A DNA stretch of 25,922 bases from Spirochaetia bacterium (GCA_035530395.1 DATKUX010000180.1:1-25922); one strand, 5' to 3'; positions 9,571-25,922 are shown, counted from the first letter of the stretch. Translations and numbers: made by a program. The notes: generated by a model not told the origin, from the sequence alone.

Positions 9571-10380
9571 ATGGCTGCAATATCCTGGCAAGAACGCCGG
9601 GTCCGCTACCTGCTGCTGACTCTTTTTCTCCTCGCCGCCGGCCTGGGTCTGGGCGGGCCTGGTTGCGCGCCCCTGCCGGGGCGGACGGAGTCCCTGACCC
9701 AGCTCAAGCCACCCTCCGACACGGATGCCGGTCCGGTCAAGGTGGTTTTCCACCTGCCCGTATCGCAACCGGCCGTCTTCCTGACCATCGACGACGGCTG
9801 GTACCCCGATTCCACCGTTCTCGGCCTCATGCAGACATATCATCTGCCGCTTACCGCCTTTTTAATTGAGAAGGCCATGCAGGATCACCCCGCCTACTGG
9901 CGGCAATTCGTGCAGGCCGGAGGCCACATCGAGGACCACACTTACGACCACCCCTTCCTGACCCGCATAGCCGCCCAAAAGCAGTACCAGGAAATCGCCT
10001 GGCCCCTGGACTATTTCAGCCGCTACGTTCCCCGGCCCGATGAGTTGCGCCCCCCTTACGGGGATTACAACGCCGCCGTGGGGATGGCCGCCCAAAAAGC
10101 CGGCATAAAATACGTCGTGATGTGGGATGCCGAAATAAGCCACGATCACCTGTACACCCTGCATAACCGCCCGCTTCAGCCGGGAGACATCGTCCTCCTG
10201 CACTGGGTGCCGGGCCTGGGACGGGAAATTAGTGACCTTTTGCCCATCCTGCAACGGGAAAAACTGGGCGTGGCCGATCTGACCCAGGCCCTGGCCGGCG
10301 GACCGCTGACCGTAACCTACTTGCCACCGCCACCCGGCCAGTCGACAGCCACCCAGGTCTATAAAAAGAGCGTTAAATAG
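9571..10380 (+). CDS. secreted polysaccharide deacetylase (NodB homology domain), paralog 1
   Basis: N-terminal signal-like segment (LLLTLFLLAAGLGLGGPGC) and NodB motifs TIDDGW, HTYDHP, LRPPYG, IVLLHW. Confidence 0.85.
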   Translation: MAAISWQERRVRYLLLTLFLLAAGLGLGGPGCAPLPGRTESLTQLKPPSDTDAGPVKVVFHLPVSQPAVFLTIDDGWYPDSTVLGLMQTYHLPLTAFLIEKAMQDHPAYWRQFVQAGGHIEDHTYDHPFLTRIAAQKQYQEIAWPLDYFSRYVPRPDELRPPYGDYNAAVGMAAQKAGIKYVVMWDAEISHDHLYTLHNRPLQPGDIVLLHWVPGLGREISDLLPILQREKLGVADLTQALAGGPLTVTYLPPPPGQSTATQVYKKSVK

Positions 10381-10487
10381 CGGGCGCCTGACCGGGCAGG
10401 AAAAGCGACAGCGACCGCGAATCTATGTAGGATCATCTTACCGGACGCCATAGGCGGCCGGAACCCGGCATGAAGGGATAAGTTCTT

Positions 10488-11459
10488 GTGGCAGAGGAGA
10501 AAAAACCCCGGTCCGGTTTGGCCAGGGTGTTTGGTAACTGGTTCGTCAGATATACGGTGTTGCTCGTAGCCATTCTCTTTTCCGGCTACGCCCTGGCCCA
10601 GGCCTATAACTGGGGTAAACCGCCGGCCGGAGAGCCACCGGACATATCGCCCGCAGTCGTGGGAACGGTTTACCAGTCCACGCCTGCGGTCACAGAGACC
10701 GAGACGGATCCCAACCCCGTCGCGGCCAAACCACCGCAGAGACCGGTGCCCCCCGGACCGGCGGCGCCCGTGGTGTGGAGTGTACCCCTAAACCAACGGG
10801 CGGTGTTCATCACCATCGACGACGGCTGGTTCCCCAGCCAGGGAGTTCTGGCCCTGATGCAGCAATACCACCTGCCCGTCACGGCTTTTCTCATTCAGAA
10901 GGCGGCGGCGGAACATGCGGCCTACTGGCAGGAATTTCTTAAAGCGGGGGGGCAGATCGAGGACCACACCTATTCACACCCGTTCCTCACTCGCATTCCC
11001 GAAAGCCAGGACCTGACCCAGATTGCCGACCCGGTCAACTACTTTAAAACTTTGGGAGCATCCCCGGACGAACTGCGTCCGCCCTACGGCGACTACGACG
11101 CGGTTGTGCAGAAGGTAGCGGCCCAAGCCGGTATCAAGTATGTGGTGATGTGGGACGCGGTCATGACCGGCGGCAAACTCACCACTGCAAACGGCCGGCC
11201 CCTGGCCCCCGGCGACATCATCCTCCTGCACTGGGTCCCCGGTCTGGACGGCAACCTGGTCACCCTGCTCCATATGCTGCAGCAGCAGAATCTGGGCGTG
11301 GCCAGCCTGGGCGACGCTCTGGACGGCCGGCCGGTACGGATAACCTGGCTGCACGAAAAAGGGGCGGTGAAGACTCAGTCCCCACCCGCCGCAACGTCGA
11401 CCTCGGTTTATAGTAACGTGTACACCCGGCCACAGCCGGCACCCAAGCCCAAGCCCTGA
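10488..11459 (+). CDS. membrane-anchored polysaccharide deacetylase (NodB homology domain), paralog 2
   Basis: GTG start with a GAAGGGA RBS. It has an N-terminal TM helix (YTVLLVAILFSGYALAQAY), a Pro-rich linker, and NodB motifs TIDDGW, HTYSHP, LRPPYG, IILLHW. The catalytic domain is collinear with paralog 1. Confidence 0.85.
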   Translation: MAEEKKPRSGLARVFGNWFVRYTVLLVAILFSGYALAQAYNWGKPPAGEPPDISPAVVGTVYQSTPAVTETETDPNPVAAKPPQRPVPPGPAAPVVWSVPLNQRAVFITIDDGWFPSQGVLALMQQYHLPVTAFLIQKAAAEHAAYWQEFLKAGGQIEDHTYSHPFLTRIPESQDLTQIADPVNYFKTLGASPDELRPPYGDYDAVVQKVAAQAGIKYVVMWDAVMTGGKLTTANGRPLAPGDIILLHWVPGLDGNLVTLLHMLQQQNLGVASLGDALDGRPVRITWLHEKGAVKTQSPPAATSTSVYSNVYTRPQPAPKPKP

Positions 11460-12035
11460 ACGGCCGTAACCGGTACCTTTTAACGCCGTCAGATATTCCC
11501 CGGCCAGGCGGCGGCCGATTGCAGTGAGCATCCATTCTTCCACCGAGGCGTTCAATCTCTGCCAGTACTCTTTCGGATCCAACCGGAAGCGGATGCTGTC
11601 GACCATGAAACCCTCCGCAGTGAAGCGCCACAGTTTATCGGCGTCCTTGACCAGGGCATCGTTTAGGGATACGGCCGTGAGCCCCGAATCATGGTTCCCG
11701 ACGATAGCCAGGATCTCCTGCCACCAGCGCCCTGGATAGCCGCTCGCGCACAGGATTTCCCTGGCCAAACGCACTCCCTCGACTTCATGAACCCTGTTCA
11801 GCCCTTTGTCCGATCCAGGCCCAAAGGCCTTCAACTGGAGATCCTCGGGCACGCACGACCATCCCACGTCATGCAGGATAACGGCAGGGATGACCACTTC
11901 CGCCTGGCCTCCTTCCTCCGCCAGCAGGGCGCGGGCGAAGTCCAGGGCTATCCCGGTATGCAGGCGGTTGGCCCGGGTGGCGAGGTAGGGCAGGGCCAGC
12001 TCCATAATGCGCGGCCAGAGACTTTCCGCAACCAT
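10974..12035 (-). CDS. HD-domain metal-dependent phosphohydrolase, paralog 1; conserved 192-aa core (11460-12035) plus a 162-codon read-through tail antisense to the deacetylase gene
   Basis: The core is collinear with the 191-aa paralog (H...HD...HD...D: LHT, LHDVGW, NHDSG, KDADKL). At the position of the paralog's TAA stop this copy has TCA (11457-11459), and the frame stays open to 10974. Confidence 0.75.
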   Translation of the reverse strand: MVAESLWPRIMELALPYLATRANRLHTGIALDFARALLAEEGGQAEVVIPAVILHDVGWSCVPEDLQLKAFGPGSDKGLNRVHEVEGVRLAREILCASGYPGRWWQEILAIVGNHDSGLTAVSLNDALVKDADKLWRFTAEGFMVDSIRFRLDPKEYWQRLNASVEEWMLTAIGRRLAGEYLTALKGTGYGRSGLGLGCRLWPGVHVTINRGRRCGGWGLSLHRPFFVQPGYPYRPAVQSVAQAGHAQILLLQHMEQGDQVAVQTGDPVQEDDVAGGQGPAVCSGEFAAGHDRVPHHHILDTGLGRYLLHNRVVVAVGRTQFVRGCSQSFKVVDRVGNLGQVLAFGNASEERV

Positions 12036-12628
12036 TTTAGCCTACCTTCCTGTTACCGGCCGTCACCGGTTTGCTGCAACCGGGCCAGGCACTCGCCGGC
12101 CAGGCGCCGGCCGCTTGGCGTCAGCAGCCACTTTTCCACCCGGGAGTTCAAAGCCCGCCAGTTGCTGGCGGGATCCAACCGGAGGCGGGTGGCGGCAAAG
12201 GCAAAACCATCCTCCGAAAAGCGCCACAGTTTGTCGGCGTCCTTGACCAGGGCATCATTGAGGGACAACGCCGTCCGCCCCGAGTCATGCTGGTCGATGA
12301 TGGCCAGGATGTCCGGCCACCAGGCTTCCGGATAACCGCTTCGGGTCAGGATTTCCCGGGCCAAACGCACGCCCTCCACTTCGTGGATGCGGTTGAGGCC
12401 GCGGTCGGCCTGCGGTCCGAAGGCCTTCAACTGCAGTTCCTCGGGCATGCACGACCAGCCCACGTCATGCAGGGTGACGGCGGGTATGACCACTTCCGGC
12501 CGACCTCCTTCCTCCGCCAGCAGGGTGCGGGCGAAGTCCAGGGCTATCTCGGTATGCCGTTGGTTGCCCCGGGTAGCGAGGTAGGGGAGGGCCAGTTCCA
12601 TAATTCGCGGCCACAGAGTTTCTTCCAT
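11460..12628. repeat. tandem direct duplication of the HD phosphohydrolase gene (two ~576-bp units, 17-bp spacer)
   Basis: The two proteins align without internal gaps, with one extra residue at the paralog-1 N-terminus. By eye the majority of residues are identical. The DNA also shows long identical runs (e.g. GACGCCGACAAACTGTGGCGCTT region). Confidence 0.8.
12053..12628 (-). CDS. HD-domain metal-dependent phosphohydrolase, paralog 2
   Basis: 191 aa with motifs RHTEIAL, LHDVGW, QHDSG, KDADKL. The ATG is 4 nt after the HAD stop. Confidence 0.85.
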   Translation of the reverse strand: MEETLWPRIMELALPYLATRGNQRHTEIALDFARTLLAEEGGRPEVVIPAVTLHDVGWSCMPEELQLKAFGPQADRGLNRIHEVEGVRLAREILTRSGYPEAWWPDILAIIDQHDSGRTALSLNDALVKDADKLWRFSEDGFAFAATRLRLDPASNWRALNSRVEKWLLTPSGRRLAGECLARLQQTGDGR

Positions 12629-12632
12629 CGTC

Positions 12633-13283
12633 TCAGCTCCCAGGCAGGAAATCCTTGAGTTCCAACAGGGAGGACAGCCAATAATCCGGATGGGCGGCCA
12701 GGAGTTCTCCCGTTCCCGTCTCCCCTCCCGCCACTATGGCCACCCTTACCCCGGCGGAGCGGGAGGCCAGGATGTCGGTAATGCTGTCGCCGACGAACAG
12801 CGCTTCGTTTGTACCGGCCTTCAAGCCGGCAAGACATTTCGTTATGCCCTCGCCTTCGGGTTTCATGAGGGTCACATCGTTGCGCGTCAGGAGGAGGGAG
12901 AAATAAGCGCGCAGTCCGAACCGGTCCATGACTTGGGAGACGGCTGCCCGGCCCACGTTGGTCACCAGTCCCGCCGGCACGGCTGTTTCCCGGAGAAACG
13001 TCAGCAATTCACGGGCTCCCGGCCGGGGCGACCAGCGGGTAAGGGCATCGAGATCGTAGCGGTCATAGATGGCCGTCAGACGTTCCCGCCAACCCGGCCG
13101 TATGCCGGGCGACGCCATGGTAACGGCTGTGTTCCACATCCGGGCGTAATTGGCGGCCGGGAAAAGGGAAGCCGGGAAGCCCCACTCCTCCAGGGCTGTT
13201 CTCAGCTCCCTTTCTCCTGCCTGCAAGTTCCACTGAAAGTCGACGAGCGTACCTTCCAGGTCGAATAAGACCGCCTTAATCAT
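12633..13283 (-). CDS. HAD-superfamily hydrolase (subfamily IA-like phosphatase)
   Basis: 216 aa with GGAGGGAAG RBS. Motif I is FDLEGTLVDF (D-x-E variant), with motif II VTN and motif IV GDSITD. Confidence 0.85.
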   Translation of the reverse strand: MIKAVLFDLEGTLVDFQWNLQAGERELRTALEEWGFPASLFPAANYARMWNTAVTMASPGIRPGWRERLTAIYDRYDLDALTRWSPRPGARELLTFLRETAVPAGLVTNVGRAAVSQVMDRFGLRAYFSLLLTRNDVTLMKPEGEGITKCLAGLKAGTNEALFVGDSITDILASRSAGVRVAIVAGGETGTGELLAAHPDYWLSSLLELKDFLPGS

Positions 13284-13318: not shown

Positions 13319-14983
13319 TTAAAGCGACGGGATGCTACTTTCGGCCCGGTCGATCTCTGTTTCCAATTGTTCTCTGAGAACCTTTTTGTTCACCTTGCCG
13401 GAATCACCCACCACCGGCAGGCCGTCGACGACTTCCAGGCGCTCCGGCAGCTTGAAGGAAGCCAGCTTTTTCTCCTGCAGAAACTCCTTTGCTTCGGCAA
13501 GGGTGAAGGTTTGGCCGGGCCTGGGTACGACAAAGGCACAGGCCCGCTCCCCGAGTTCGCGGTCCGGGAAACCGACTACCACCACCAGCTTTATCTTCGG
13601 GTGCTCCTGCAACAGGCCCTCGATCTCCGCCGGGTAAATATTCTGGCCGCCCCGGATGATCATGTCCTTGGTCCGGCCCATGATCCAGAGACATCCCTCA
13701 TCCCATTTCACGGTGTCACCGGTGGTCGTCCAACCTTCGGGGTTGAAAACAGCGGCCGTGCTTTCCGGCTCCCGGTAGTAGCCGGCCGGCGAATGCGGAC
13801 CCCGGAACCAGAGCTGGCCGGGATCGCTTTCCGTAACCTCGTTTCCGTGTTCATCCAGCAGCCGGACGGCATTGCCCGGCAGGGGCCGTCCCACGGTCCT
13901 CCTTCGCAGGTCGGCCGGGTCATCCACCCGGCAGCCGGAGACGGAGCCCACATCCTGGGTGCCGAGGTCACTCGTTATTACGCCGCCCAGGCGCCTTTCC
14001 GCCTCCTGCGCCACATCCGGGGGCAGGTAACCGCCGGCCGAACGGATGAAACGCAACGAGAGGTCGTATTCCTCCACCGGTTGCTCCAGCATGCGGACCA
14101 GATGGGTGGGAACCACCCCGATGCAGGTGGCTTTCTCTTTGGTGATCAGATTGAGCGCTCTTACGGCTGTAAATTCCTCCAGGAGAACGGTCCTGGCCCC
14201 GACCAAAGGGGCCGCGAAGTAGGTGAGCGTGCCGGCGGCCCCGCCGGCGAAAGGGGCGATGGCCGCCGCGGTATCCCCCGGTCCCAGGTTCCAGATATCC
14301 ACCCGGGCCTTGGCCGTGCACAGACGCGGGGCGATGTTCCACTCCACCAGCTTGGGCAGACCGGTCGTGCCGCTGGTGCTGGTCAGAAAGGCCACTTCCC
14401 GGAAGGGATCGAAGCGGCGCTCTTCCAGGATCCGCAGTTTCTCCGCCGCCACCGGATCCCGGGTGAGCTTCATCAGGGAGTAGGTATCCCCGGGGCCTCC
14501 GGACGGCACGTCCTCGCTGAGCAGGAAGGTGTAGCGGAAGTTGGGGGAGAACTTCCTCAGACTCCCGTACATCGCCAGGTAATCGAAATCACGGTAGGTA
14601 TGGGGAATGACGACCGCCGAGACGGCCATCTTCTCCACCATGTAGGATAGTTCTTTCTCCCGCATGTAGGCGTAGACCAACAGGGAGATCAGGCCGGCCC
14701 GTTCGGCGGCCATGCGCGCCAGAAAGGCATACACCTCGTTGGGAGCCTGGATGAGGATGCGGTCGCTCTTCTTTAGACCCATCTCCACCCAGCGGTAGGC
14801 CAGGCGGTCCACCAGATCCCTGGCCTGGGCCCAGGTCAGCCGGTACCGGGAGTCCACCACGGCTTCCTTGTCCGGCATTTCCCGGGCGTTTTGGGCCCAG
14901 AAATCGTAGAACGTTTCGGACGTCCAGTAACCCTTATCCCTGAACTCGTCGATTACTTCGTCTGTGTACCGGATAACTCGCAT
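13319..14983 (-). CDS. aryl-acid--CoA ligase (AMP-forming; EntE/DhbE- and aromatic/alicyclic acid-CoA ligase-like)
   Basis: AMP-binding motif TSTSGTTGLPKL. The N-terminus YTDEVIDEFRDKGYWTSETF resembles aryl-acid adenylating enzymes. C-terminal motifs GDT...RTKDMIIRGGQNIYP and FKLPERLEVVDGLPVVGDSGKVNKK. The ATG at 14983 (GGGGTGGTG RBS, 21 nt after the UbiD stop) is preferred over the TTG at 15001. Confidence 0.85.
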   Translation of the reverse strand: MRVIRYTDEVIDEFRDKGYWTSETFYDFWAQNAREMPDKEAVVDSRYRLTWAQARDLVDRLAYRWVEMGLKKSDRILIQAPNEVYAFLARMAAERAGLISLLVYAYMREKELSYMVEKMAVSAVVIPHTYRDFDYLAMYGSLRKFSPNFRYTFLLSEDVPSGGPGDTYSLMKLTRDPVAAEKLRILEERRFDPFREVAFLTSTSGTTGLPKLVEWNIAPRLCTAKARVDIWNLGPGDTAAAIAPFAGGAAGTLTYFAAPLVGARTVLLEEFTAVRALNLITKEKATCIGVVPTHLVRMLEQPVEEYDLSLRFIRSAGGYLPPDVAQEAERRLGGVITSDLGTQDVGSVSGCRVDDPADLRRRTVGRPLPGNAVRLLDEHGNEVTESDPGQLWFRGPHSPAGYYREPESTAAVFNPEGWTTTGDTVKWDEGCLWIMGRTKDMIIRGGQNIYPAEIEGLLQEHPKIKLVVVVGFPDRELGERACAFVVPRPGQTFTLAEAKEFLQEKKLASFKLPERLEVVDGLPVVGDSGKVNKKVLREQLETEIDRAESSIPSL

Positions 14984-15004
14984 CTGTCCGCACCACCCCA
15001 ACCC

Positions 15005-16423
15005 TTAATCAAGTCCCAACTCACTCCAGCGGGCCCGCACCTTCTTGACTATTTCCTCATCCAGGAAGATTTCGTCCGGTTTGCGGTCCCACTCGTAAGG
15101 AATGGTCGCGTCCATGATGATCTTGGAACCGATGTCCCGCGCCGTGATGGGCAGGGCGGGATCAAGGGGCGTCGAACGGGCCCGCTTGATGATCTCCGTG
15201 CTCCGGTTCGGGTCGTAGCGCACGGCCAGGGCCCACAACACTTTGTCCAGGTCGTCGGCCGGAATGTCCTCGTCGACGATGATGGTACCCTTCATCCCGT
15301 AGTGGCCCGTCGTGGACCCGTGCACCGCCATGCCGACATGCATGGAATGGCCGGGATACATCGTCTTCACGGAGACGATGCTCCAGAACCGGCCGCCCAT
15401 CTGGGGCGGCAGGTAGACCGACTTGATCCCCGGCACGCCCGCCGCCAGCAGGTCGGTCCAGAGAGTGGCCGTCCTGTTCAGGGACTGGATCATGTGGGTA
15501 TCGGTGATCGGCTTGCCCACCGTGGTCGACCAGAAAACGGGCTTCTCACGCCGCCATACCCGCTGCACGTGCAGGACTTGTTTGGGCCATTCCTCGCCGG
15601 TCTTGCCGGAATAGTAGCCGGTGTACTCGCCGAAGGGCCCCTCTTCCCGCAGGTCGTTGGGGTCGATATAACCATCCAGGATGATTTCGGCATGGGCGGG
15701 CAGGGGCAGGCCGCTCACGTCGCTGGTGAAGACCTCCACGGGCTCTCCCCTTAGGGCACCGATGACGTCGTACTCATCGACCTGCTGCTGGATGAAGGTG
15801 CTGGACACCAGGAAGTGCAAGGGATCGCAGCCGATCACGGCCGCGGCGGGCATCAGCTTCCCCGCCTTCTGGTACTGTTTGAAATGGAAGTCGGCATGCT
15901 TGCCCTTGATGATCTGAACTCCCACATGGTTCCTGTCGTGGACCATCATCCGGTACGTTCCCAGGTTGACCCATCCCGTTTCCAAATCGCGGCTGACCAG
16001 GTAGACCGCCGTGCCGATGAACCGGCCGCCATCCTGGGGATAGAAAAAGGGCACGGGAAAATCCCTCAGGACGTCGACGTCGCCTTCGTCGACCACCTTT
16101 TCGCAGACCGGACCGGAATCCACCCGGACGGGTTTGATCAACCCTTTCCGCGTGGTCTCGACCCAGGTTCTGGCCATTTCGCACATGGAATAGTCCGTGG
16201 GCATGCCCAGAGTGATGGCCAGCCTTTTGTCCGTGGTCATGGAGGACGTCAGCACCGGTATGTCATAGCCCTTGACGTTCTCGAAAAGGAGGGCCGGGCC
16301 TTTTTTTTCCTCGTTGAGCTTGGCGATATGCGCGAGTTCAAGGTTCCAGTCCACTTCGGCGGAGATCCTTTTGAGCTCCCCTTCCTGTTCGCACTTATCG
16401 ATCCATTCCCGCATACTTTTCAT
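15005..16423 (-). CDS. UbiD-family (prFMN-dependent) aromatic (de)carboxylase; candidate phenylphosphate/phenol-type carboxylase catalytic subunit
   Basis: ~472 aa. UbiD hallmarks: N-terminus MKSMREWIDKCEQEGELKRI, then WVNLGTYRMMV and GPFGEYTGYYSG. The ATG at 16423 is preceded by an AAGGGGG RBS. The 6-codon extension in the track contains that RBS. Confidence 0.9.
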   Translation of the reverse strand: MKSMREWIDKCEQEGELKRISAEVDWNLELAHIAKLNEEKKGPALLFENVKGYDIPVLTSSMTTDKRLAITLGMPTDYSMCEMARTWVETTRKGLIKPVRVDSGPVCEKVVDEGDVDVLRDFPVPFFYPQDGGRFIGTAVYLVSRDLETGWVNLGTYRMMVHDRNHVGVQIIKGKHADFHFKQYQKAGKLMPAAAVIGCDPLHFLVSSTFIQQQVDEYDVIGALRGEPVEVFTSDVSGLPLPAHAEIILDGYIDPNDLREEGPFGEYTGYYSGKTGEEWPKQVLHVQRVWRREKPVFWSTTVGKPITDTHMIQSLNRTATLWTDLLAAGVPGIKSVYLPPQMGGRFWSIVSVKTMYPGHSMHVGMAVHGSTTGHYGMKGTIIVDEDIPADDLDKVLWALAVRYDPNRSTEIIKRARSTPLDPALPITARDIGSKIIMDATIPYEWDRKPDEIFLDEEIVKKVRARWSELGLD

Positions 16424-16483
16424 GGTTATCCCCCTTACCATTTTGGTTTCATGACTGACGAGCGAAGATTGTTGCAGTGGGAG

Positions 16484-17557
16484 TCAACTCGTAAACAGTT
16501 TTTTCCCTGTCAGCAGGTTGCCGGCGATGAGATCGAGGGCGCTTGCTTTCGGTTGGGATAAAGGGACGTTCGGCTTCTGCGTCCAAACGGTTTCCGGCCG
16601 GGTCTGCACCAGGATGATGTTTTCCGGAAAAGCCAGGTCGGCATCAATGGCCCATTCCATGTCCTGGGGAATACCCCAATGCTTTTCCACCATCTTGCCC
16701 AGTCTGGCCAGGTGGATTATCTCTCCATCGGAGAGACAGGGCGCGTCCCGCCTCTCGGGGGGCACCTCCAGTGACTTCACGTTGCCACCCTCATCGTAGA
16801 CCAGTTCGATGGTCTTGTTACAGATTATCCGTTTGGAGATCTCCAGGGTGACCTTGTCCAGGACATACTTGTCCGGGGTAACCTGCCCGCTGACCAGGCT
16901 CTCTCCCAGGCCCCAACTGCCCTCGATAAAGATCCTGGACCGGTCGCCGTTTACCGGATCGAGGGTGAACATAACGCCGGAGGACTTTGACTTGACCATC
17001 TTGAGCACGGCCACACCGATGGGGGAACTCTCCACACGCATGCCGCGCTGCAAACGGTAGGCCATGGCCCGCCCGGTGAAGGAACTTGCCCATACCTTGA
17101 CCACATGGTCTATTACCTCCCTTTCACCCTTCACATTGAGGAAGGTATCGAACTGTCCGGGCATGCTGACGGGCCCGCTGGAGCGCACGGCGACGTCGGC
17201 CTCGGCCAGGTTGCATTTCTTGGACAGTTCGCGGTAATAGGTGAGAATGGGTTCCTTTATTCCCTCCGGCATGGGGCTTCCTTCAACCAGGTTCCGGATG
17301 TACCGGCTGGCTTCCTCGAAGAGGTTGATATCCTCTTTCAGGCGCTCCACCATAGGATCAAGGTATTCGATGATCATCCGGCCCAAACCGGTTTCCTCGA
17401 CGAACTGCTCGTACGCGTCCAGGGTGACGGCATAACCGGGAGGAACAGGCATACCGGCCCGGATCATCTCGCCCAGGTTGTAGCACTTTTTGCCGGCTGT
17501 TCTATAGTTGTCATTGGCCAGCTGTTCCAGCCAACATACATACGGCTTACCGCTCAT
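16484..17557 (-). CDS. ppsB: phenylphosphate synthase beta-like subunit (PEP synthase/PPDK N-terminal ATP-grasp domain only)
   Basis: 357 aa from the ATG at 17557 (GGGGAGGGG RBS 8 nt upstream). It has nucleotide-binding ATP-grasp motifs (GKKCYNLGEMIRAGMPVPPGYAVT, VAVRSSG) and no swivel-His or PEP-binding domains. Confidence 0.8.
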   Translation of the reverse strand: MSGKPYVCWLEQLANDNYRTAGKKCYNLGEMIRAGMPVPPGYAVTLDAYEQFVEETGLGRMIIEYLDPMVERLKEDINLFEEASRYIRNLVEGSPMPEGIKEPILTYYRELSKKCNLAEADVAVRSSGPVSMPGQFDTFLNVKGEREVIDHVVKVWASSFTGRAMAYRLQRGMRVESSPIGVAVLKMVKSKSSGVMFTLDPVNGDRSRIFIEGSWGLGESLVSGQVTPDKYVLDKVTLEISKRIICNKTIELVYDEGGNVKSLEVPPERRDAPCLSDGEIIHLARLGKMVEKHWGIPQDMEWAIDADLAFPENIILVQTRPETVWTQKPNVPLSQPKASALDLIAGNLLTGKKLFTS

Positions 17558-17706
17558 CCGAAAAACCCCTCCCCAATCTTTTTCTCCAGAGCGAACCGGG
17601 TACCAACCGAGGCGCCAAACCACTGCCCCCTGGAAGAGTGTTGAATTCTTCCGCAGTCTTGATCACTTTGACGGGCCCCCGAACCGCCTTCGGCGGACCG
17701 GCAAAC

Positions 17707-17791: not shown

Positions 17792-18379
17792 CTATTTAAA
17801 AACCGGACGACCAAGTGGCAATATGGGTCTTTCGAAGTGTTCCGCCCACAGTACCGCTGTTGAAGAGTAGATGCAGAACGCAGCGAATAGCAAAAGCAGG
17901 TACCCGGCTATAACGCCTGCGTTGGCTGAGCCACCTAAGATAGAAACCCCTAGTAACAGGAAGGCCACACCAACTTCTGCTATGCCTGCCATAAGCAACC
18001 AGCTTATGCGTCCGAACCCGACCGCATATGTCTCTGTGATAACAAACAACGTAACCCAGAAAACACCCATTACCTCGGGAGTGAACGCCCCTGGCTTCGG
18101 CGCCTGAATCACTTGTTGCCATAATGTAATGGCTGCGCCAAGGGTGATTACCGTGCCGAATACCCCGGATATGGTGCCCAGCAGTAATTCTCCTCTTTTG
18201 AAGAAGATGATACCGGCTAGCAGTTGTGGCAAAGAACATGCCAACAAGATCCCTATCAAGAGGGGGATCGTTGTGGGAGGCACCCATCCCGCGTAAACAG
18301 CCCCTACCGACGCGGTGAGCACAGCCACCGCATTAATAGCCCAGGGAATCTGATTGGCCCACTCTTGTTGTTGAGGCAC
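17792..18379 (-). CDS. GPR1/FUN34/YaaH (AceTr, SatP-like) family membrane channel, divergent member
   Basis: 195 aa with about six hydrophobic helices. GTG start with an AAAGGAGTG RBS. It is collinear with E. coli YaaH/SatP in the core (LPQLLAGIIFFKRGELLLGTISGVFG vs IAQIFAGLLEYKKGNTFGLTAFTSYG) and the C-terminus (FERPILPLG vs FGRTVLPIG). The N-terminal NPAPLGL signature is not conserved. Confidence 0.75.
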   Translation of the reverse strand: MPQQQEWANQIPWAINAVAVLTASVGAVYAGWVPPTTIPLLIGILLACSLPQLLAGIIFFKRGELLLGTISGVFGTVITLGAAITLWQQVIQAPKPGAFTPEVMGVFWVTLFVITETYAVGFGRISWLLMAGIAEVGVAFLLLGVSILGGSANAGVIAGYLLLLFAAFCIYSSTAVLWAEHFERPILPLGRPVFK

Positions 18380-18421: not shown

Positions 18422-20257
18422 CTAGAGTAACGTGATAACCCCCTGGTTGCCGTCCACCCGGATCAACTGTCCGGTTTTAATGGTCGATGTGGCGAAACCG
18501 GTACCTACTACGGCCGGCAAGCCATACTCCCGGCACACGATGGCCGCATGGGACATGATTCCGCCGACATCCGTGACGCAGGCCCTGATTCTGGTAAAGA
18601 TCGGTGCCCAACTGGGGGAGGTGGTGGCCGCGACCAGAATCTCGCCCTCCTGCAGGGTATTGAGCTCTTCCAAGGTCCGGATCACCTTGGCTTTGCCTTC
18701 CACAACTCCCGCCGACCCGGCGAAGCCGCTTAATTCCTTGACATCCGCGAGGTTCACCTTACCCGCGGAGAGCCACGCGTCCATCGATTTGCTGGTTATC
18801 CCCCACAACATGATCGTGAAGGGTTCGCTTATGGTCTCCGGCGCAACCCCCAGGGCCGGTGGAGGCATGAATTCCCTGAACTTGTTGATGACATCCTTGC
18901 GCCAGGCGATTTCCGGCGGCCAGTAGGACGGCCCGCGGCCTTTGACCCCGGTGGCCCAGGCCGTCAGGAGATCATACAGCGCTTCCTGGATCTCGTAGCG
19001 GTTAAGGTACCAGATGTCCTCCCCATCGGCAAAGAAACCATGATTGACAAAAATCCGGGACAATTCACGGATTTTGTTCCAAAACACACCATGGAACCAG
19101 TGCTCCACGTAGAAATTATGGTTTTCGACATAGGGGAAAACCCTTTGGGCCACGGCAATCAACTGCCGGAAAGTATTCCGGTCATCTTCCGCAGCCAAAA
19201 GGTCCGTATATTCGGCGATGATCCGGTCCCGCTCCAGGCGCACCTGTTCCAACGGGCGGGCCAGGCTTTGCCCTTTTTCCAGTTTCCCGATATAGCTCTG
19301 GATGGCCATGAAAGGTATTTCCAACCGGTCCAGCCAGGAATAGTGGTCATGGTACCACCCGGTCCCCGAAGACAGGTAGAACCACGGGTATTTAGCCTTC
19401 TCCAGTCGGTCCAGCCACTGGCGCCCCGGTTCGGTGGTACCCAGCCGGTCGATGATTTCCTGGGGCCGGGAAGACGACTTGACGATTTCAGCCACGCCGA
19501 GATCGACGGCCGCCTGGGCCAGTTCTTTCAACCTCTCGTCCGGCTGGAACAATATCACGTCGATGCCGGCCACCATCTGGGTAATCGTCCGGTCCTCGAT
19601 GCCGGGGAAAGCCTTGTGGCAGAACTCGGTCAAGGGAAGGTAGGCGGCGTAGCCCAGGTTCAAGAATTCGAAGTGGTACTGCCAGGCCCGCAGCGCACAA
19701 TCGATCAAATGGGTGTAGGTTTTGGTCAACTGGTAACCACTGCTTAAGCCAATGCCCTCAAAAACCAGGGAGCTATCCTCCATCTCGGGAAGGTCTTTGA
19801 TCTCGATATCTTCCAGTTCCTTGATAAGGGCCTCCATTTTCTTCTGCCACTTGGCGTACAACTCATCCCAGTTCTCATAGTAAAAGCCGGCGCGCTCCAA
19901 AAAGTGGGGCAACCTTTCCTGAATCTTCGCCGGATCGGTTACCGGTACCGGGCTGATATAGATATATCCGTTAACGATGCGATGATCTATACCCAAAGCC
20001 GGTGGGATCATGAAAATCCTGCTGTTATACTGTGATAGGGCCATAAACCAGGCTTCATCCCAGATCAGGTCGAAAGGGTACATGGGCTCGGGGTAGTGAA
20101 GCCCGTCGTAATACCAGAGGACACTTTCCTCATAGGCTTTTCTCTCCGGATCATCCTTGCTGACCCGGTAAAAGTACGGATACATCCTTTCCCAGCCCTC
20201 GGTACCGGGAATCGTCTTTACCTCGCTGGGCATGGTGAATGCCCTCTGCTCGGCCAT
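18422..20257 (-). CDS. ppsA: phenylphosphate synthase alpha-like subunit (large N-terminal substrate domain plus C-terminal PEP-utilising mobile His domain)
   Basis: ~611 aa from the ATG at 20257 (AAAGGAGGT RBS 8 nt upstream). The C-terminus GGIMSHAAIVCREYGLPAVVG is the phospho-histidine swivel domain. The N-terminal ~500 aa (GWERMYPYFY...HYPEPMYPFD) matches the PpsA-type architecture rather than full-length PEP synthase. Confidence 0.8.
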   Translation of the reverse strand: MAEQRAFTMPSEVKTIPGTEGWERMYPYFYRVSKDDPERKAYEESVLWYYDGLHYPEPMYPFDLIWDEAWFMALSQYNSRIFMIPPALGIDHRIVNGYIYISPVPVTDPAKIQERLPHFLERAGFYYENWDELYAKWQKKMEALIKELEDIEIKDLPEMEDSSLVFEGIGLSSGYQLTKTYTHLIDCALRAWQYHFEFLNLGYAAYLPLTEFCHKAFPGIEDRTITQMVAGIDVILFQPDERLKELAQAAVDLGVAEIVKSSSRPQEIIDRLGTTEPGRQWLDRLEKAKYPWFYLSSGTGWYHDHYSWLDRLEIPFMAIQSYIGKLEKGQSLARPLEQVRLERDRIIAEYTDLLAAEDDRNTFRQLIAVAQRVFPYVENHNFYVEHWFHGVFWNKIRELSRIFVNHGFFADGEDIWYLNRYEIQEALYDLLTAWATGVKGRGPSYWPPEIAWRKDVINKFREFMPPPALGVAPETISEPFTIMLWGITSKSMDAWLSAGKVNLADVKELSGFAGSAGVVEGKAKVIRTLEELNTLQEGEILVAATTSPSWAPIFTRIRACVTDVGGIMSHAAIVCREYGLPAVVGTGFATSTIKTGQLIRVDGNQGVITLL

Positions 20258-20342
20258 AATCACTTACCTCCTTTGCGTTCAATTTGGGAATCTCCACCGA
20301 ACATGCTAGCCGCCTGCGAAAGGCAGTTCGCTGATTCCTGAT

Positions 20343-22795: not shown

Positions 22796-23365
22796 CTAAC
22801 GGCTGTGGTCGCCCCAGCGCCGGAATAGATCATGTTCGATGGCGAATTGATCCAGTATTTTGCCCACCGTCTGATTGACGATGTCGTCAAGGGTGACGGG
22901 CAGGTGATAGAAGGCCGGCATGGGGGGAAGGACGACGGCGCCCAGTTCGGCCACTGCAACCAACAACTTCAAGTGGCCCGCATGCAGGGGGGTCTCCCGG
23001 GGAACAACCACCAGTTTTCTTCTTTCCTTGAGGGTGACATCGGCCGCGCGGACCAGGAGATTGTCGTTGTAAGAGTTGGCAATGGCCGAAACTGTCTTCA
23101 TCGAACAGGGTACAACGACCATTCCGTCCGTCCTGAACGAACCGCTGGCCACCGCAGCCCCGATATCGGAGTTGTCGTAGACGCGGTGGGCCAATCTCCC
23201 TACCTGCTCGACGGAATAGGCGGTTTCCAGCCTGATTGTCCTCCCGGCCGCCTCCGAGACAACCAGGTGAGTCTCGATTTCCGGACAGGCAGAAAGGGTC
23301 TCCAAAAGCCTGATCCCGTATATGGCCCCCGAGGCACCCGATATCCCCACCACAATCCTGGTCAT
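22796..23365 (-). CDS. ubiX: flavin prenyltransferase UbiX (prFMN synthase)
   Basis: 189 aa from the ATG at 23365 (GGGGGTGG RBS). MTRIVVGISGASGAIYGIRLLETL...MVVVPCSMKTVSAIANSY...VVVPRETPLH is the canonical UbiX/Pad1 fold signature. The 98-codon upstream extension in the track is not family-like. Confidence 0.9.
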   Translation of the reverse strand: MTRIVVGISGASGAIYGIRLLETLSACPEIETHLVVSEAAGRTIRLETAYSVEQVGRLAHRVYDNSDIGAAVASGSFRTDGMVVVPCSMKTVSAIANSYNDNLLVRAADVTLKERRKLVVVPRETPLHAGHLKLLVAVAELGAVVLPPMPAFYHLPVTLDDIVNQTVGKILDQFAIEHDLFRRWGDHSR

Positions 23366-23750: not shown

Positions 23751-25922
23751 TCATCCCTCCTGGGCCCGCTTCTCCTTCAGGGCCCGCCAGACCTTCTCAT
23801 AAGACAGCGGCAGGCTGTCCAGCCGGATACCCATGGCGTCGTAAATAGCGTTGGCGTAGCAGCCCATGGTGGGTATGGTGGCACCCTCCCCCACCTCTTT
23901 GACGCCCCACGGACCGGCCGGCTCCGGTTCCTCGCTATAGACCAGGGCCGAGGTTATCCGGGGCATATCCAAAGCCGTCGGCAGACGGTACTCACCCAGG
24001 TTCCCGTTGAGGATTTTGCCCTTATCGTCAAAGATAACCTGTTCCCAAATCGACTCGCCCATACCCATGAAGAGGGCCCCGTGCACCTGGGCGTGCAACA
24101 GCGACGGGTTGATCACCATGCCGCAGTCGTGCACGTCCCAGACTTCGGCCACCTTGATCTCCCCCGTCTCGGCGTCGATCTCCACTTCGCTGATCTGGGT
24201 GGCGAAGCTATAGGCAGGCGAAGTTCCCACCGCCGCTCCCTTGAACTTCCCGCCCAGCTTGGGCGGCGCATAGGAGCCCTTCCCCACCAGCGGACCCCGT
24301 TTGACGAAAAAGGTGCGGGCTACCTCGGCGAAAGTGAACTTGGCCTCGCCGGTCTCCCGGTCGAAAATTACGCCTAAACGGCAGTCGAGACTGGCCGCAT
24401 CCACCGCCAGTAGTTCGGCCGCCATTCCCATCAGCTGGGTCTTCACCTCTTCACCAGCCCGCTTGACGGCCCAGCCGGACATCAGGGTCTGGCGGCTGGC
24501 GTAGGCGCCGAAATCGTGGGGGGCGGTTTCGGTGTCCGCGGACACGATCTTCATGTTGTCATAGGTAAAGCCCATGGCCTCGGCCGCCATCTGACAGAGG
24601 ACGGTGTCACTCCCCTGGCCGATGTCCACCGCCCCGGTATACAGGGTGGCCGAGGTGCCGTCCTCGTTGACCCGGACGACGGCGGAGGCATGAGGTAGAT
24701 CGGTGCGGTAGATGGGATAACCCGCCCCGGAAACGAAGCTGCCCACGGCGACGCCGATGCCGCGGCCCGGCGGCAGGTGGCCCTTCTTTTCGTCCCAGCC
24801 GGACAGTTCGCGCGCCTTTTCTATGCAGGCCGCCATCTCACAGGAATTAACCTGAAAGTCGTTCGGGGTAACGGTATTGGGCCGCCGGGCGTTGACCAGC
24901 CGCAATTGCAGCGGGTCCATCCCCAGGTCCTTCGCTACCATGTCCAGGTGGCACTCCAGGGCGTAGCGGGGTTGCGGAGCCCCGTGGCCGCGCTGGGCGC
25001 CGCAGGCCGGCAGGTTGGTGTAAACACGGTACATATCGAACTTGAAGTTGTCAAACTCATAGGTTAGGGGCAGCATGGCCCCGGCATAGTAGGCGCTGGC
25101 CACGCCCAGACTGGTGTAAGCGCCCCCGTCCATGATGAAGTTGGCGTGCAGGCCCAGGATACGGCCGTCCTTATCCACCCCGGTGGTGACCTCCATGTAC
25201 TGGCGGTGCCGGCCCCGGTTGTGGGCAAACATCTCGTGGCGGTCGTAGAACATGCGGACCGGTCGCCCGGTCAGACGGGCCAGAACCGCCCCGGCAAACT
25301 CCAGGCCGGTTGGTTCCAGCTTGCCGCCGAATCCCCCGCCCACGAAAGGCTTGATTACCCGGACGTCGCCCATCGGCAGTCCGAACTCCCGGGCCAGGTA
25401 ATACTGGAAATAGTGGGGCGACTGGGTGCTGGAGTAGACCGTGAGCTTGCCGTCCTGCCACATGGATATGGCCGAATGGGGTTCGATCGGGCACTGGTAC
25501 GTCCTCTGGCCCACAAAACGGTCGGTGCGTACGTGGTAGGCCCCGGCAAAGGCCTGGTCCACATCGCCGAAGTGCTGGTGGATCTCGGTGTTGATATTCC
25601 TGGGGAACTCGTCGTGGATCTGGGCCGTCTCCTCATTCATGGCCTTTAACGGGTCCAGGACGGTCGGTAGCTCCTCGTATTCCACCTTGATCAACTTAAG
25701 GGCTTTGTAAACGGTCTCCTCGTCCAGGGCGGCCACAGCCGCCACCTTGTCGCCGACGAAGCGAACCTTATCGATGCAAAAGATGTTCTCGTCCCAGCGG
25801 GCCGGACTGATCCCGTATTTCATCTCCGGCACGTCGCGATGGGTAATCACCGCTTTGACCCCGGGCAGCTTCTCGGCCTCGCTGGTGTCGATGCTCAGGA
25901 TACGGGCGTGGGCATGCGGGCT
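23751..25922 (-). CDS. xanthine dehydrogenase/aldehyde oxidase-family molybdopterin-binding large subunit, 5' end beyond the window; candidate 4-hydroxybenzoyl-CoA reductase alpha subunit
   Basis: The frame stays open upstream of the track's GTG start to base 25922 (SPHAHARILSIDTSEAEKLPGVKAVITHRDVP...), which is the normal family N-domain. Other family motifs are VIKPFVGGGFGGK, GAQRGHG, DIGQGSDT and WGVKEVGEG. The Hcr assignment rests on context only. Confidence 0.85.
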   Translation of the reverse strand, partial: SPHAHARILSIDTSEAEKLPGVKAVITHRDVPEMKYGISPARWDENIFCIDKVRFVGDKVAAVAALDEETVYKALKLIKVEYEELPTVLDPLKAMNEETAQIHDEFPRNINTEIHQHFGDVDQAFAGAYHVRTDRFVGQRTYQCPIEPHSAISMWQDGKLTVYSSTQSPHYFQYYLAREFGLPMGDVRVIKPFVGGGFGGKLEPTGLEFAGAVLARLTGRPVRMFYDRHEMFAHNRGRHRQYMEVTTGVDKDGRILGLHANFIMDGGAYTSLGVASAYYAGAMLPLTYEFDNFKFDMYRVYTNLPACGAQRGHGAPQPRYALECHLDMVAKDLGMDPLQLRLVNARRPNTVTPNDFQVNSCEMAACIEKARELSGWDEKKGHLPPGRGIGVAVGSFVSGAGYPIYRTDLPHASAVVRVNEDGTSATLYTGAVDIGQGSDTVLCQMAAEAMGFTYDNMKIVSADTETAPHDFGAYASRQTLMSGWAVKRAGEEVKTQLMGMAAELLAVDAASLDCRLGVIFDRETGEAKFTFAEVARTFFVKRGPLVGKGSYAPPKLGGKFKGAAVGTSPAYSFATQISEVEIDAETGEIKVAEVWDVHDCGMVINPSLLHAQVHGALFMGMGESIWEQVIFDDKGKILNGNLGEYRLPTALDMPRITSALVYSEEPEPAGPWGVKEVGEGATIPTMGCYANAIYDAMGIRLDSLPLSYEKVWRALKEKRAQEG

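Follow-up and report, generated by a model that had tools for sequence, protein, structure and literature searches.

Probable pathway-dedicated phosphohydrolases of the HAD and HD families in an anaerobic phenol island of a Spirochaetia bacterium

Introduction

To carboxylate phenol, strict anaerobes make do with PpsA, PpsB and one UbiD-family protein, which raises the question of how they dispense with the alpha, gamma and delta subunits found in Thauera (PMC6114531). A second question is where the flavin prenyltransferase UbiX obtains dimethylallyl monophosphate (DMAP) in such anaerobes. Both are raised by a phenol island on a 25,922-nt stretch of DNA from a Spirochaetia bacterium (GCA_035530395.1, DATKUX010000180.1:1-25922), analyzed here at its full length and referred to as the window. 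Behind the genes for the phenylphosphate synthase halves PpsA and PpsB, the UbiD-family carboxylase subunit PpcB and an aryl-acid CoA ligase lie three phosphohydrolase genes, one encoding a HAD protein and two encoding tandem HD-domain paralogs (HD2 and HD1). An initial annotation made from the sequence had offered two non-exclusive roles for them, either as phosphate-releasing partners of the single UbiD protein in place of the delta subunit, or as hydrolases turning dimethylallyl diphosphate (DMAPP) into DMAP for the synthesis of prenylated flavin mononucleotide (prFMN) by UbiX.

The best explanation found here is that the three genes are probably co-transcribed with the anaerobic phenol island and encode phosphohydrolases accessory to it, not housekeeping enzymes, and it is highly probable that they are dedicated to the pathway. 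Both protein families are conserved, uncharacterized and nearly confined to where the phenol pathway occurs. A more specific reading, in which the HD proteins are phosphatase partners of Pps-type kinases, the HAD protein takes part in prFMN supply and neither replaces the delta subunit, is put forward tentatively, with a likelihood close to but short of even.

The published cluster analyses consulted here (PMC6114531, PMC1924859) name only pps-alpha/beta, ppc-beta and unexplained neighbors. The initial annotation held that HD-domain proteins had not been described in the proposed roles, and a literature search agreed, yielding no paper that joined phenylphosphate with an HD-domain or metal-dependent phosphohydrolase. 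Accessory phosphatases as such are known from aromatic pathways that begin with a kinase; what appears new is the pair of families, with their almost exclusive distribution and their fusions. The two enzyme families and their natural fusions (HD-HAD, UbiX-HD, and HAD with a riboflavin-kinase-like, RFK-like, domain) are cheap candidates for in vitro phenylphosphate carboxylation and prFMN synthesis, which matter for biocatalytic CO2 fixation and for the prediction of phenol degradation from metagenomes.

Results

The HD Family Accompanies Pps-Type Kinases

The genome-level survey covered 401 genomes of one strictly anaerobic phylum, with the HD family called at E ≤ 1e-35. The family was found in 27 genomes; in 26 of them PpcB also passed its curated cut-off and a PpsB-like gene of the split type was present as well. 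It occurred in 26 of 71 PpcB-positive genomes and in 1 of 330 PpcB-negative genomes. Pps and PpcB were present together in 67 of the 401 genomes, with a PpsB-like gene alone in eight and PpcB alone in four, none of these with HD. Genomes with at least two PpsB-like genes carried the family more often (17/24) than those with one (9/51). Among 61 relatives of the same order, HD was present in three, and a split PpsA-type gene in only four, including those three.

The locus-level survey covered 80 loci, from 80 species-level genomes, encoding the closest HD relatives, and these were searched with the window proteins. A Pps-like gene (PpsA or PpsB) lay within 10 kb of HD in 39 of them; when only the 39 loci whose flanks both reached 8 kb or more were counted, the figure was 24. 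By chance, a gene would be this near a PPDK_N-type gene in about 1–5% of cases, based on five HD-bearing genomes with 2–7 such genes in 3–10 Mb. In the 39 Pps-bearing loci the two genes were on the same strand in 33, and Pps was upstream of HD in 33. A PpcB-like UbiD gene was found in 17 loci, a ligase in 17 and UbiX, within 10 kb, in 12. A Pps-like pair without UbiD characterized 24 of the 80 loci, and UbiD without Pps only two. The Pps link was found on every major branch of the HD tree, in four phyla. When the five neighbors to the left and right of HD were clustered without supervision, PpsB-like ranked first (20 loci) and PpsA-like second (19), followed by UPF0261, UbiD, the ligase, SDR, LysR, a 106-aa ABM protein, AFOR and a PpsC/AcuB-type CBS+ACT protein of 213 aa. 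The CBS+ACT gene was directly upstream of HD in seven loci. Some HD clades adjoined ARMT1 damage-control phosphatases or LysR regulators, not pps genes.

The closest relatives of the window HDs (64–70% identity) were all encoded behind Pps-like pairs, in the company of oxidoreductases (AFOR, SDR and FAD enzymes) and with no UbiD or UbiX, and an HD-HD fusion from an Anaerolineae genome had this same setting. In its gene linkage the family therefore has the profile of a phosphatase dedicated to Pps kinases, being encoded and co-occurring with the split PpsA/PpsB-type kinase. In Desulfomonilaceae/Syntrophaceae a second conserved module was observed at a distance of a few kb from the phenol cluster (L009:6069-13381, with similar ones at L023, L024, L060, and L080). 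It holds genes for PpsA-like (560 aa), PpsB-like, NIPSNAP-like (219 aa), ABM, HD and Mo-hydroxylase proteins, and ahead of these come genes for an SDR and two FAD enzymes.

HD2 and HD1 share 72% identity and are the sole copies of the family in the genome. Both exceeded the gathering score of PF01966 (22 bits), and they belong to a family of conserved stand-alone HD proteins of about 190 aa. No curated NCBIfam model matched either of them. In a 30-sequence alignment including both window copies, H25, H54-D55, H82-E83, H114-D115, D130/D132/K133 and several Arg, Lys and Trp residues were invariant, as were the motifs LHDVGW, LQLKAFGP, NRxHEVEG and KDADKLWR. The family keeps the complete H...HD...H...HD...D metal site, every family-invariant residue is retained in HD1 and HD2, and the additional His residues may fit a binuclear metal site. 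The dN/dS ratio was 0.34 between HD2 and HD1 and 0.22–0.31 against the copies of a sister species, indicating that both copies are under purifying selection.

An AlphaFold2 model of HD2 (pLDDT 93) was all-helical with 11 helices, and its top 30 Foldseek matches were all HD proteins. The nearest solved folds were YpgQ, 3djb, 2pq7, YedJ and YqeK, at 15–20% identity and E > 1e-3; TM-scores were 0.62–0.69 for the first four and about 0.68 for YpgQ, 3djb and 2pq7. A sequence search of the PDB gave only marginal matches for the family, to these same first four proteins, the best profile match having an E of 1e-3 over 40 residues, and membership in the YpgQ/YqeK/YfbR-type named HD enzymes failed at the sequence level in both NCBIfam and PDB. 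The modeled fold and predicted metal site are those of a phosphohydrolase; the substrate is not readable from them.

The HAD Protein Belongs to a D-x-E Clade Linked to UbiX and RFK-Like Proteins

The HAD protein, encoded by a single-copy gene, scored above the cut-offs of TIGR01549 and TIGR01509 and has the capped IA architecture. D8, E10, T12, K141, D166 and D170 were invariant in an alignment of 30 sequences. Motif I of the clade reads F-D-[LF]-E-G-T-L-V-D-F-Q-W in 30/30, with D-x-E replacing D-x-D; as it is present in all sampled members, D-x-E is a family trait and not a local oddity. The best NCBIfam matches below the cut-offs were PpaX (NF009804; 84.1 bits against 218) and phosphoglycolate phosphatase, PGP (TIGR01449; 73.8 against 180), and TIGR02726, the PpcD model, was not among its NCBIfam hits.

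The D-x-E clade was present in only 2 of the 61 same-order relatives, namely the genome of the window and the sister species, and in 10 of 58 PpcB-centered loci. Together with the HD counts given above, these figures bear out the co-occurrence with UbiD-ligase clusters for which the initial annotation had called. About 28 of 84 mostly short HAD-centered contigs also carried ppsA/B, ppcB, UPF0261 or ubiX, the commonest neighbor being PpsB-like.

Fusions of HAD with PF01982, the CTP-dependent RFK-like domain, were found in at least 10 database proteins, one of them encoded directly after ppsA-ppsB and a flavin-reductase-like gene. As a stand-alone gene, PF01982 followed ubiX in 14 of 18 clusters that carry a delta-like gene (defined below) and in none of 40 that lack one, often with a PF01613 flavin-reductase-like gene nearby. 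Beside ubiX, the PF01982 and PF01613 genes look like a prFMN supply set. PF01982 was directly after ubiX at L213, L214 (1804-2208, minus strand), L215, L216, L218, L220, L230, L237, and L238.

UPF0261, Not HAD or HD, Alternates With the Delta-Like Gene

In Thauera aromatica the delta subunit, PpcD, is a HAD-superfamily phosphatase of the phenol cluster that frees phosphate from phenylphosphate for carboxylation by the UbiD core (PMC6114531). PpcD is a KdsC-like HAD-IIIA protein (TIGR02726), whereas the window HAD is a capped, PGP-like IA protein with D-x-E, and the HD proteins have a fold unrelated to PpcD. None of the 401 genomes encoded a PpcD above the TIGR02726 cut-off of 282 bits. The source genome of the window, a metagenome-assembled genome of 3.4 Mb and 89% completeness, also lacked PpcD, its best TIGR02726 match reaching 27 bits. 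It contained no delta-like gene, UPF0261 or cluster CBS+ACT gene, and there were no candidates for the alpha and gamma subunits in the window. As a delta detector in anaerobes TIGR02726 was rejected, housekeeping KdsC dominating the matches; the KdsC-like gene adjoining ppcB in one genome served as the delta-like probe and was applied to the 58 PpcB-centered loci.

The probe separated 18 clusters with a delta-like gene, which had several UbiD genes, from 40 delta-less clusters with one. HAD-DxE was present in 5/18 and 5/40 of them, respectively, HD in 2/18 and 7/40, and either of the two in 7/18 and 11/40. As HAD and HD are found equally whether the delta-like gene is there or not, and show no alternation with it, the proposal that they substitute for the delta subunit was not supported as a general rule. 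For HD, the 24 loci that have a Pps-type kinase and no UbiD also weigh against it. The gene that does alternate with the delta-like gene is UPF0261 (PF06792/PF23189), present in 39/40 delta-less and 3/18 delta-like clusters, making it the best candidate for replacing alpha, gamma and delta in single-UbiD clusters and shifting the "missing delta" question in its direction. The CoA ligase was found in 32/40 and 3/18, respectively. The clusters closest to that of the window (L097 and L101; 81–88% PpcB identity) have the order ligase-UPF0261-HAD where the window has HAD and HD, and a delta-substituting role in this particular lineage alone is conceivable.

Gene Fusions in the Sister Species and Elsewhere

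A genome of the same genus had the order hcrA-PucR-ppsA-ppsB-ppcB-ligase, then a 426-aa open reading frame (ORF), ubiX and a second HD gene. The 426-aa ORF (L014:10736-12016, minus strand) joins an HD domain to a D-x-E HAD through a 24-residue linker, and this HD-HAD fusion protein was recorded on three contigs from several sources. In the sister species ubiX is at the tail of the operon, compared with a position upstream of the regulator in the window. One 2.6-kb metagenome contig, and no other, encoded a 394-aa UbiX-HD fusion (L273:866-2050), immediately behind a PpsB-like gene. The strings ubiX-RFK-HD, HAD-ubiX-HD and HD-ubiX-HAD were also seen.

Discussion

Proposed Roles and Known Counterparts

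The HD protein is proposed to work alongside Pps-type (split PEP-synthase-like) kinases as the enzyme that takes phosphate off again, whether or not UbiD is present. Its substrate would be made by the kinase, either an aryl phosphate or a by-product of the aryl diphosphate type. Aryl phosphates and diphosphates are favored because Pps-type kinases are the dominant partner, because the layout is that of CreHI...CreD, and because the logic is that of HpeHI/HpeD and AcvAB/AcvF. HD2 and HD1 probably work as a dimer, as suggested by the recurrence of tandem copies and HD-HD fusions. The D-x-E HAD would act in prFMN supply with UbiX, the RFK-like protein and the flavin reductase, a role favored because it is fused to the RFK-like domain and lies near UbiX and the flavin reductase. 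Conversion of DMAPP to DMAP is the leading guess for its reaction, this being the only step in the supply set without a candidate enzyme. DMAP supply would fit the HAD better than the HD proteins. We infer all substrates named here for both families.

In Escherichia coli, DMAP for UbiX comes from Nudix hydrolysis of DMAPP and from a promiscuous prenol kinase, protein families that differ from HD and HAD, and we know of no HD or HAD enzyme for the conversion of DMAPP to DMAP. Precedents for kinase partners are closer. The PpsAB homologs HpeHI of Rhodococcus and AcvAB of Sphingobium work with dedicated phosphatases, HpeD and AcvF, which take the phosphate off at a later step; for HpeD this step follows carboxylation, and the carboxylase is not stimulated by it (PMC9618137; bioRxiv 10.1101/2022.04.28.489975). 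These are aerobic pathways with biotin carboxylases and NagD-like phosphatases, in contrast to the IA/D-x-E HAD and HD enzymes of the window. The NagD-like type of HpeD and AcvF is presumably HAD-IIA.

The gene table of PMC7764795 places CreHI of the Corynebacterium glutamicum 4-cresol pathway beside a phosphohydrolase, CreD. The cre cluster, with kinase, oxidoreductases and phosphohydrolase, has the layout of the Pps-like/SDR/AFOR/FAD-enzyme/HD modules, the likeness of CreD being drawn from its description in that table. If CreD were an HD protein, the window HD family would be distantly related to an enzyme already known; among the listed HD hits with a source name, none was actinobacterial. 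YpgQ of Bacillus subtilis, 3djb, 2pq7 and YedJ share the all-helical HD fold of about 190 aa with the window HDs, but YpgQ is a nucleotide pyrophosphohydrolase, and the window family has its own motifs and a different genomic context. Similarly, PpaX and bacterial PGP, the best NCBIfam and PDB sequence matches of the HAD, are capped IA proteins but have D-x-D in motif I, as opposed to D-x-E, and another context.

Several observations weigh against the proposed division of roles. The Fisher P of ~1e-20 for the association of HD with PpcB overstates the case, since the genomes are related and not independent. Pps and PpcB are inseparable as HD partners at the genome level, because the two nearly always co-occur. 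Of the nine HD genes in PpcB-centered loci, seven were within two genes downstream of ubiX, which, like the UbiX-HD fusion, points to the cofactor branch for HD too. Enzymes of separate branches would less readily be fused as HD and HAD are; they may share one task. A phenylphosphate phosphatase that is neither specific nor held in a complex would drive a futile cycle. The best families of the HAD (PpaX, PGP) and the nearest folds of the HD (YpgQ, YqeK, YedJ) are pyrophosphate, sugar-phosphate or nucleotide enzymes, not aryl or prenyl ones. Finally, many members of the HAD clade are found in unrelated contexts, for example in Rhodocyclaceae, and the chemistry of the clade is therefore probably general and recruited to the phenol pathway.

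Alternative Explanations

The shared-task view can be taken further, with HD and HAD joining the RFK-like protein and the flavin reductase in one module dedicated to prFMN precursors for UbiX, in which one of the hydrolases converts DMAPP to DMAP. The fusions RFK-HAD, HD-HAD and UbiX-HD connect all four proteins, and the gene strings listed above, together with the order HD.HAD-ubiX-HD of the sister species, bring them into proximity. The metal site of HD appears to have the binuclear pattern typical of HD enzymes that cleave pyrophosphates or diesters, the top family match of the HAD is a pyrophosphatase, PpaX, and a DMAP-forming enzyme is otherwise not evident in the cluster. Nevertheless, fusions indicate a common pathway and not a common reaction, and the one joining UbiX to HD rests on one 2.6-kb contig. 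UbiX was near HD in far fewer loci than Pps-like genes (12 against 39 of 80), UbiD was absent from 24 Pps-bearing loci, and the nearest HD relatives belong to modules with neither UbiD nor UbiX. Moreover, UbiX is present in 51 of the 61 relatives, 48–49 of which lack both families. A common cofactor module for both enzymes is thus considered rather unlikely. Replacement of the delta subunit, in which HAD and/or HD would bind the single UbiD protein, hydrolyze phenylphosphate and pass phenolate to the carboxylase, is less probable again. It would account for a genome devoid of PpcD, a delta-like gene and UPF0261 and a window devoid of alpha and gamma candidates, and for the three genes occupying the position that UPF0261 has in L097 and L101. 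Delta, HpeD and AcvF are all HAD-superfamily phosphatases, and with Glu as the acid/base residue the phenolate could remain unprotonated. Yet neither gene is anticorrelated with the delta-like gene, and all five HADs in delta-type clusters lie beside or overlap the PF01982 gene, together with the delta-like gene. HD occurs in many modules without UbiD, and either gene is within ~9 kb in only 31% of PpcB clusters, so that single-UbiD carboxylases generally manage without them.

It is also doubtful, and slightly more so, that HD serves as an accessory of the kinase together with the PpsC-type CBS protein, resetting a phospho- or pyrophosphoryl-histidine on PpsA or clearing an AMP- or Ap4A-like nucleotide. 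The location of HD directly downstream of the CBS+ACT (AcuB/PpsC-like) gene in seven loci, and of Pps-like pairs generally, would agree with this, as would its higher frequency where a genome has more than one PpsB-like gene and the nucleotide-directed nature of its nearest solved folds (YpgQ, YqeK, YedJ); the role of PpsC is itself still open (PMC6114531). However, the cluster and genome of the window have no CBS+ACT gene, the likeness in fold is remote in both E-value and identity, turnover of Thauera PpsAB requires no such factor according to the literature summary in PMC6114531, and the HD-HAD and UbiX-HD fusions are left unexplained. A variant in which HD replaces PpsC was rejected, as HD sits directly after the PpsC-like gene in those seven loci. 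That the enzymes are generic nucleotidases or sugar phosphatases, adjacent by chance or hitch-hiking on a mobile island, appears extremely improbable. None of the three takes a name from a curated family, some members of the HAD clade are in unrelated contexts, some HD clades are beside ARMT1 or LysR, and the region has a distinct G+C content (~62%), but co-occurrence is strong by genome and by locus, both families are absent from 58–59 of the 61 relatives, and both HD copies are under purifying selection. The genes are separated by gaps of 4–35 nt and are kept, though rearranged, in the sister species. The preferred reading therefore remains that of HD as partner of the Pps kinases and HAD in prFMN supply.

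Gene Order of the Phenol Island

Positions in Table 1 refer to the whole window, and the genes of the phenol island are on the minus strand. As initially annotated, and in agreement with the ORF list, the gaps are 35 nt from the ligase to HAD, 4 nt from HAD to HD2 and 17 nt from HD2 to HD1, all on the same strand. Each gene also has its own putative ribosome-binding site, as had been noted, these being the purine-rich GGAGGG, GGGAG and AGGAAGG/GGTAGG at 8–14 nt 5' of each ATG. A promoter and terminator scan, overall not above chance, found no terminator-like or sigma-70-like site between the ligase and the three genes.

Table 1. Features of the phenol island and of its convergent neighbor, in window coordinates.
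Feature	Position	Strand	Remarks
4-hydroxybenzoyl-CoA-reductase-like Mo subunit	23751-25850	-	First island gene
UbiX flavin prenyltransferase	~22796-23359	-	Cluster's own copy; Flavoprotein domain 153 bits
GAF/PucR regulator	between ubiX and ppsA	-	
PpsA, His-carrier half of phenylphosphate synthase	18422-20263	-	NF006152 914 bits; PEP-utilizers domain
AceTr/YaaH-like channel	17792-18379	-	Between ppsA and ppsB
PpsB, ATP-binding half of phenylphosphate synthase	16484-17623	-	PPDK_N 313 bits
PpcB, UbiD-family phenylphosphate carboxylase beta	15005-16441	-	TIGR02724 582 bits (cut-off 469)
Aryl-acid CoA ligase	13319-15001	-	Directly upstream of HAD gene; AMP-binding 183 bits
HAD-IA phosphohydrolase, 216 aa	12633-13283	-	Pfam HAD_2 83 bits, Hydrolase 82 bits
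HD2, stand-alone HD phosphohydrolase, 191 aa	12053-12628	-	PF01966 33.5 bits; TAA stop
HD1, paralog of HD2	11460-12035 (homologous part)	-	PF01966 27.9 bits; 353-aa ORF 10974-12035
HD1 read-through tail, 162 codons	10974-11459	-	Antisense to deacetylase gene; no homology to HD relatives
Terminator-like hairpin, 9 pairs, then TTTTT	11356-11386	-	~75 nt past end of HD1 homology
Polysaccharide deacetylase, convergent	10488-11459	+	Polysacc_deac_1 78 bits

The split PpsB is encoded by a single gene in the genome and PpcB has no second gene of its kind, while a second copy of ubiX is located on another contig (C148). The ligase, which probably starts at the ATG at 14983, shares 83% identity with the cluster ligase of the sister species. 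The AceTr/YaaH-like channel gene between ppsA and ppsB has copies of 54–81% identity in the pps clusters of unrelated lineages (L097, L073, L229, L230, L237, L262, and L263), and its position is therefore not a one-off. The stretch of distinct G+C content extends over 6–16 kb of the window, against 46–57% on either side, with a boundary inside the island near ppcB/ppsB.

Read-Through of HD1 and the Convergent Deacetylase

The initial annotation took the whole 353-aa frame of HD1 as the gene. Such an ORF exists, but homology to HD relatives is confined to the part listed in Table 1. Where HD2 ends in ...GGC CGG TAA, HD1 reads ...GGC CGT TCA, and because the stop is replaced by TCA the ORF extends for another 162 codons. 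Read on the plus strand (11457-11459), the same triplet is the TGA at which the convergent deacetylase gene stops. All 29 HD relatives in the alignment end within ~25 residues of the stop point of HD2, and the HD1 tail probably contributes nothing functional to the protein, as far as the alignment indicates. A 353-aa protein with a genuine C-terminal domain was rejected, the tail being antisense to a conserved deacetylase gene and having no homologs.

The hairpin beyond HD1 may be the end of the operon transcript, although this is weak evidence given that 7 terminator-like sites were found against 6.8 expected in shuffled sequences. The middle base of 11457-11459 decides both stops: with a T on the plus strand HD1 would end normally and the deacetylase would read on. 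Two tandem polysaccharide-deacetylase paralogs (9571-11459) stand tail-to-tail with the two tandem HD paralogs.

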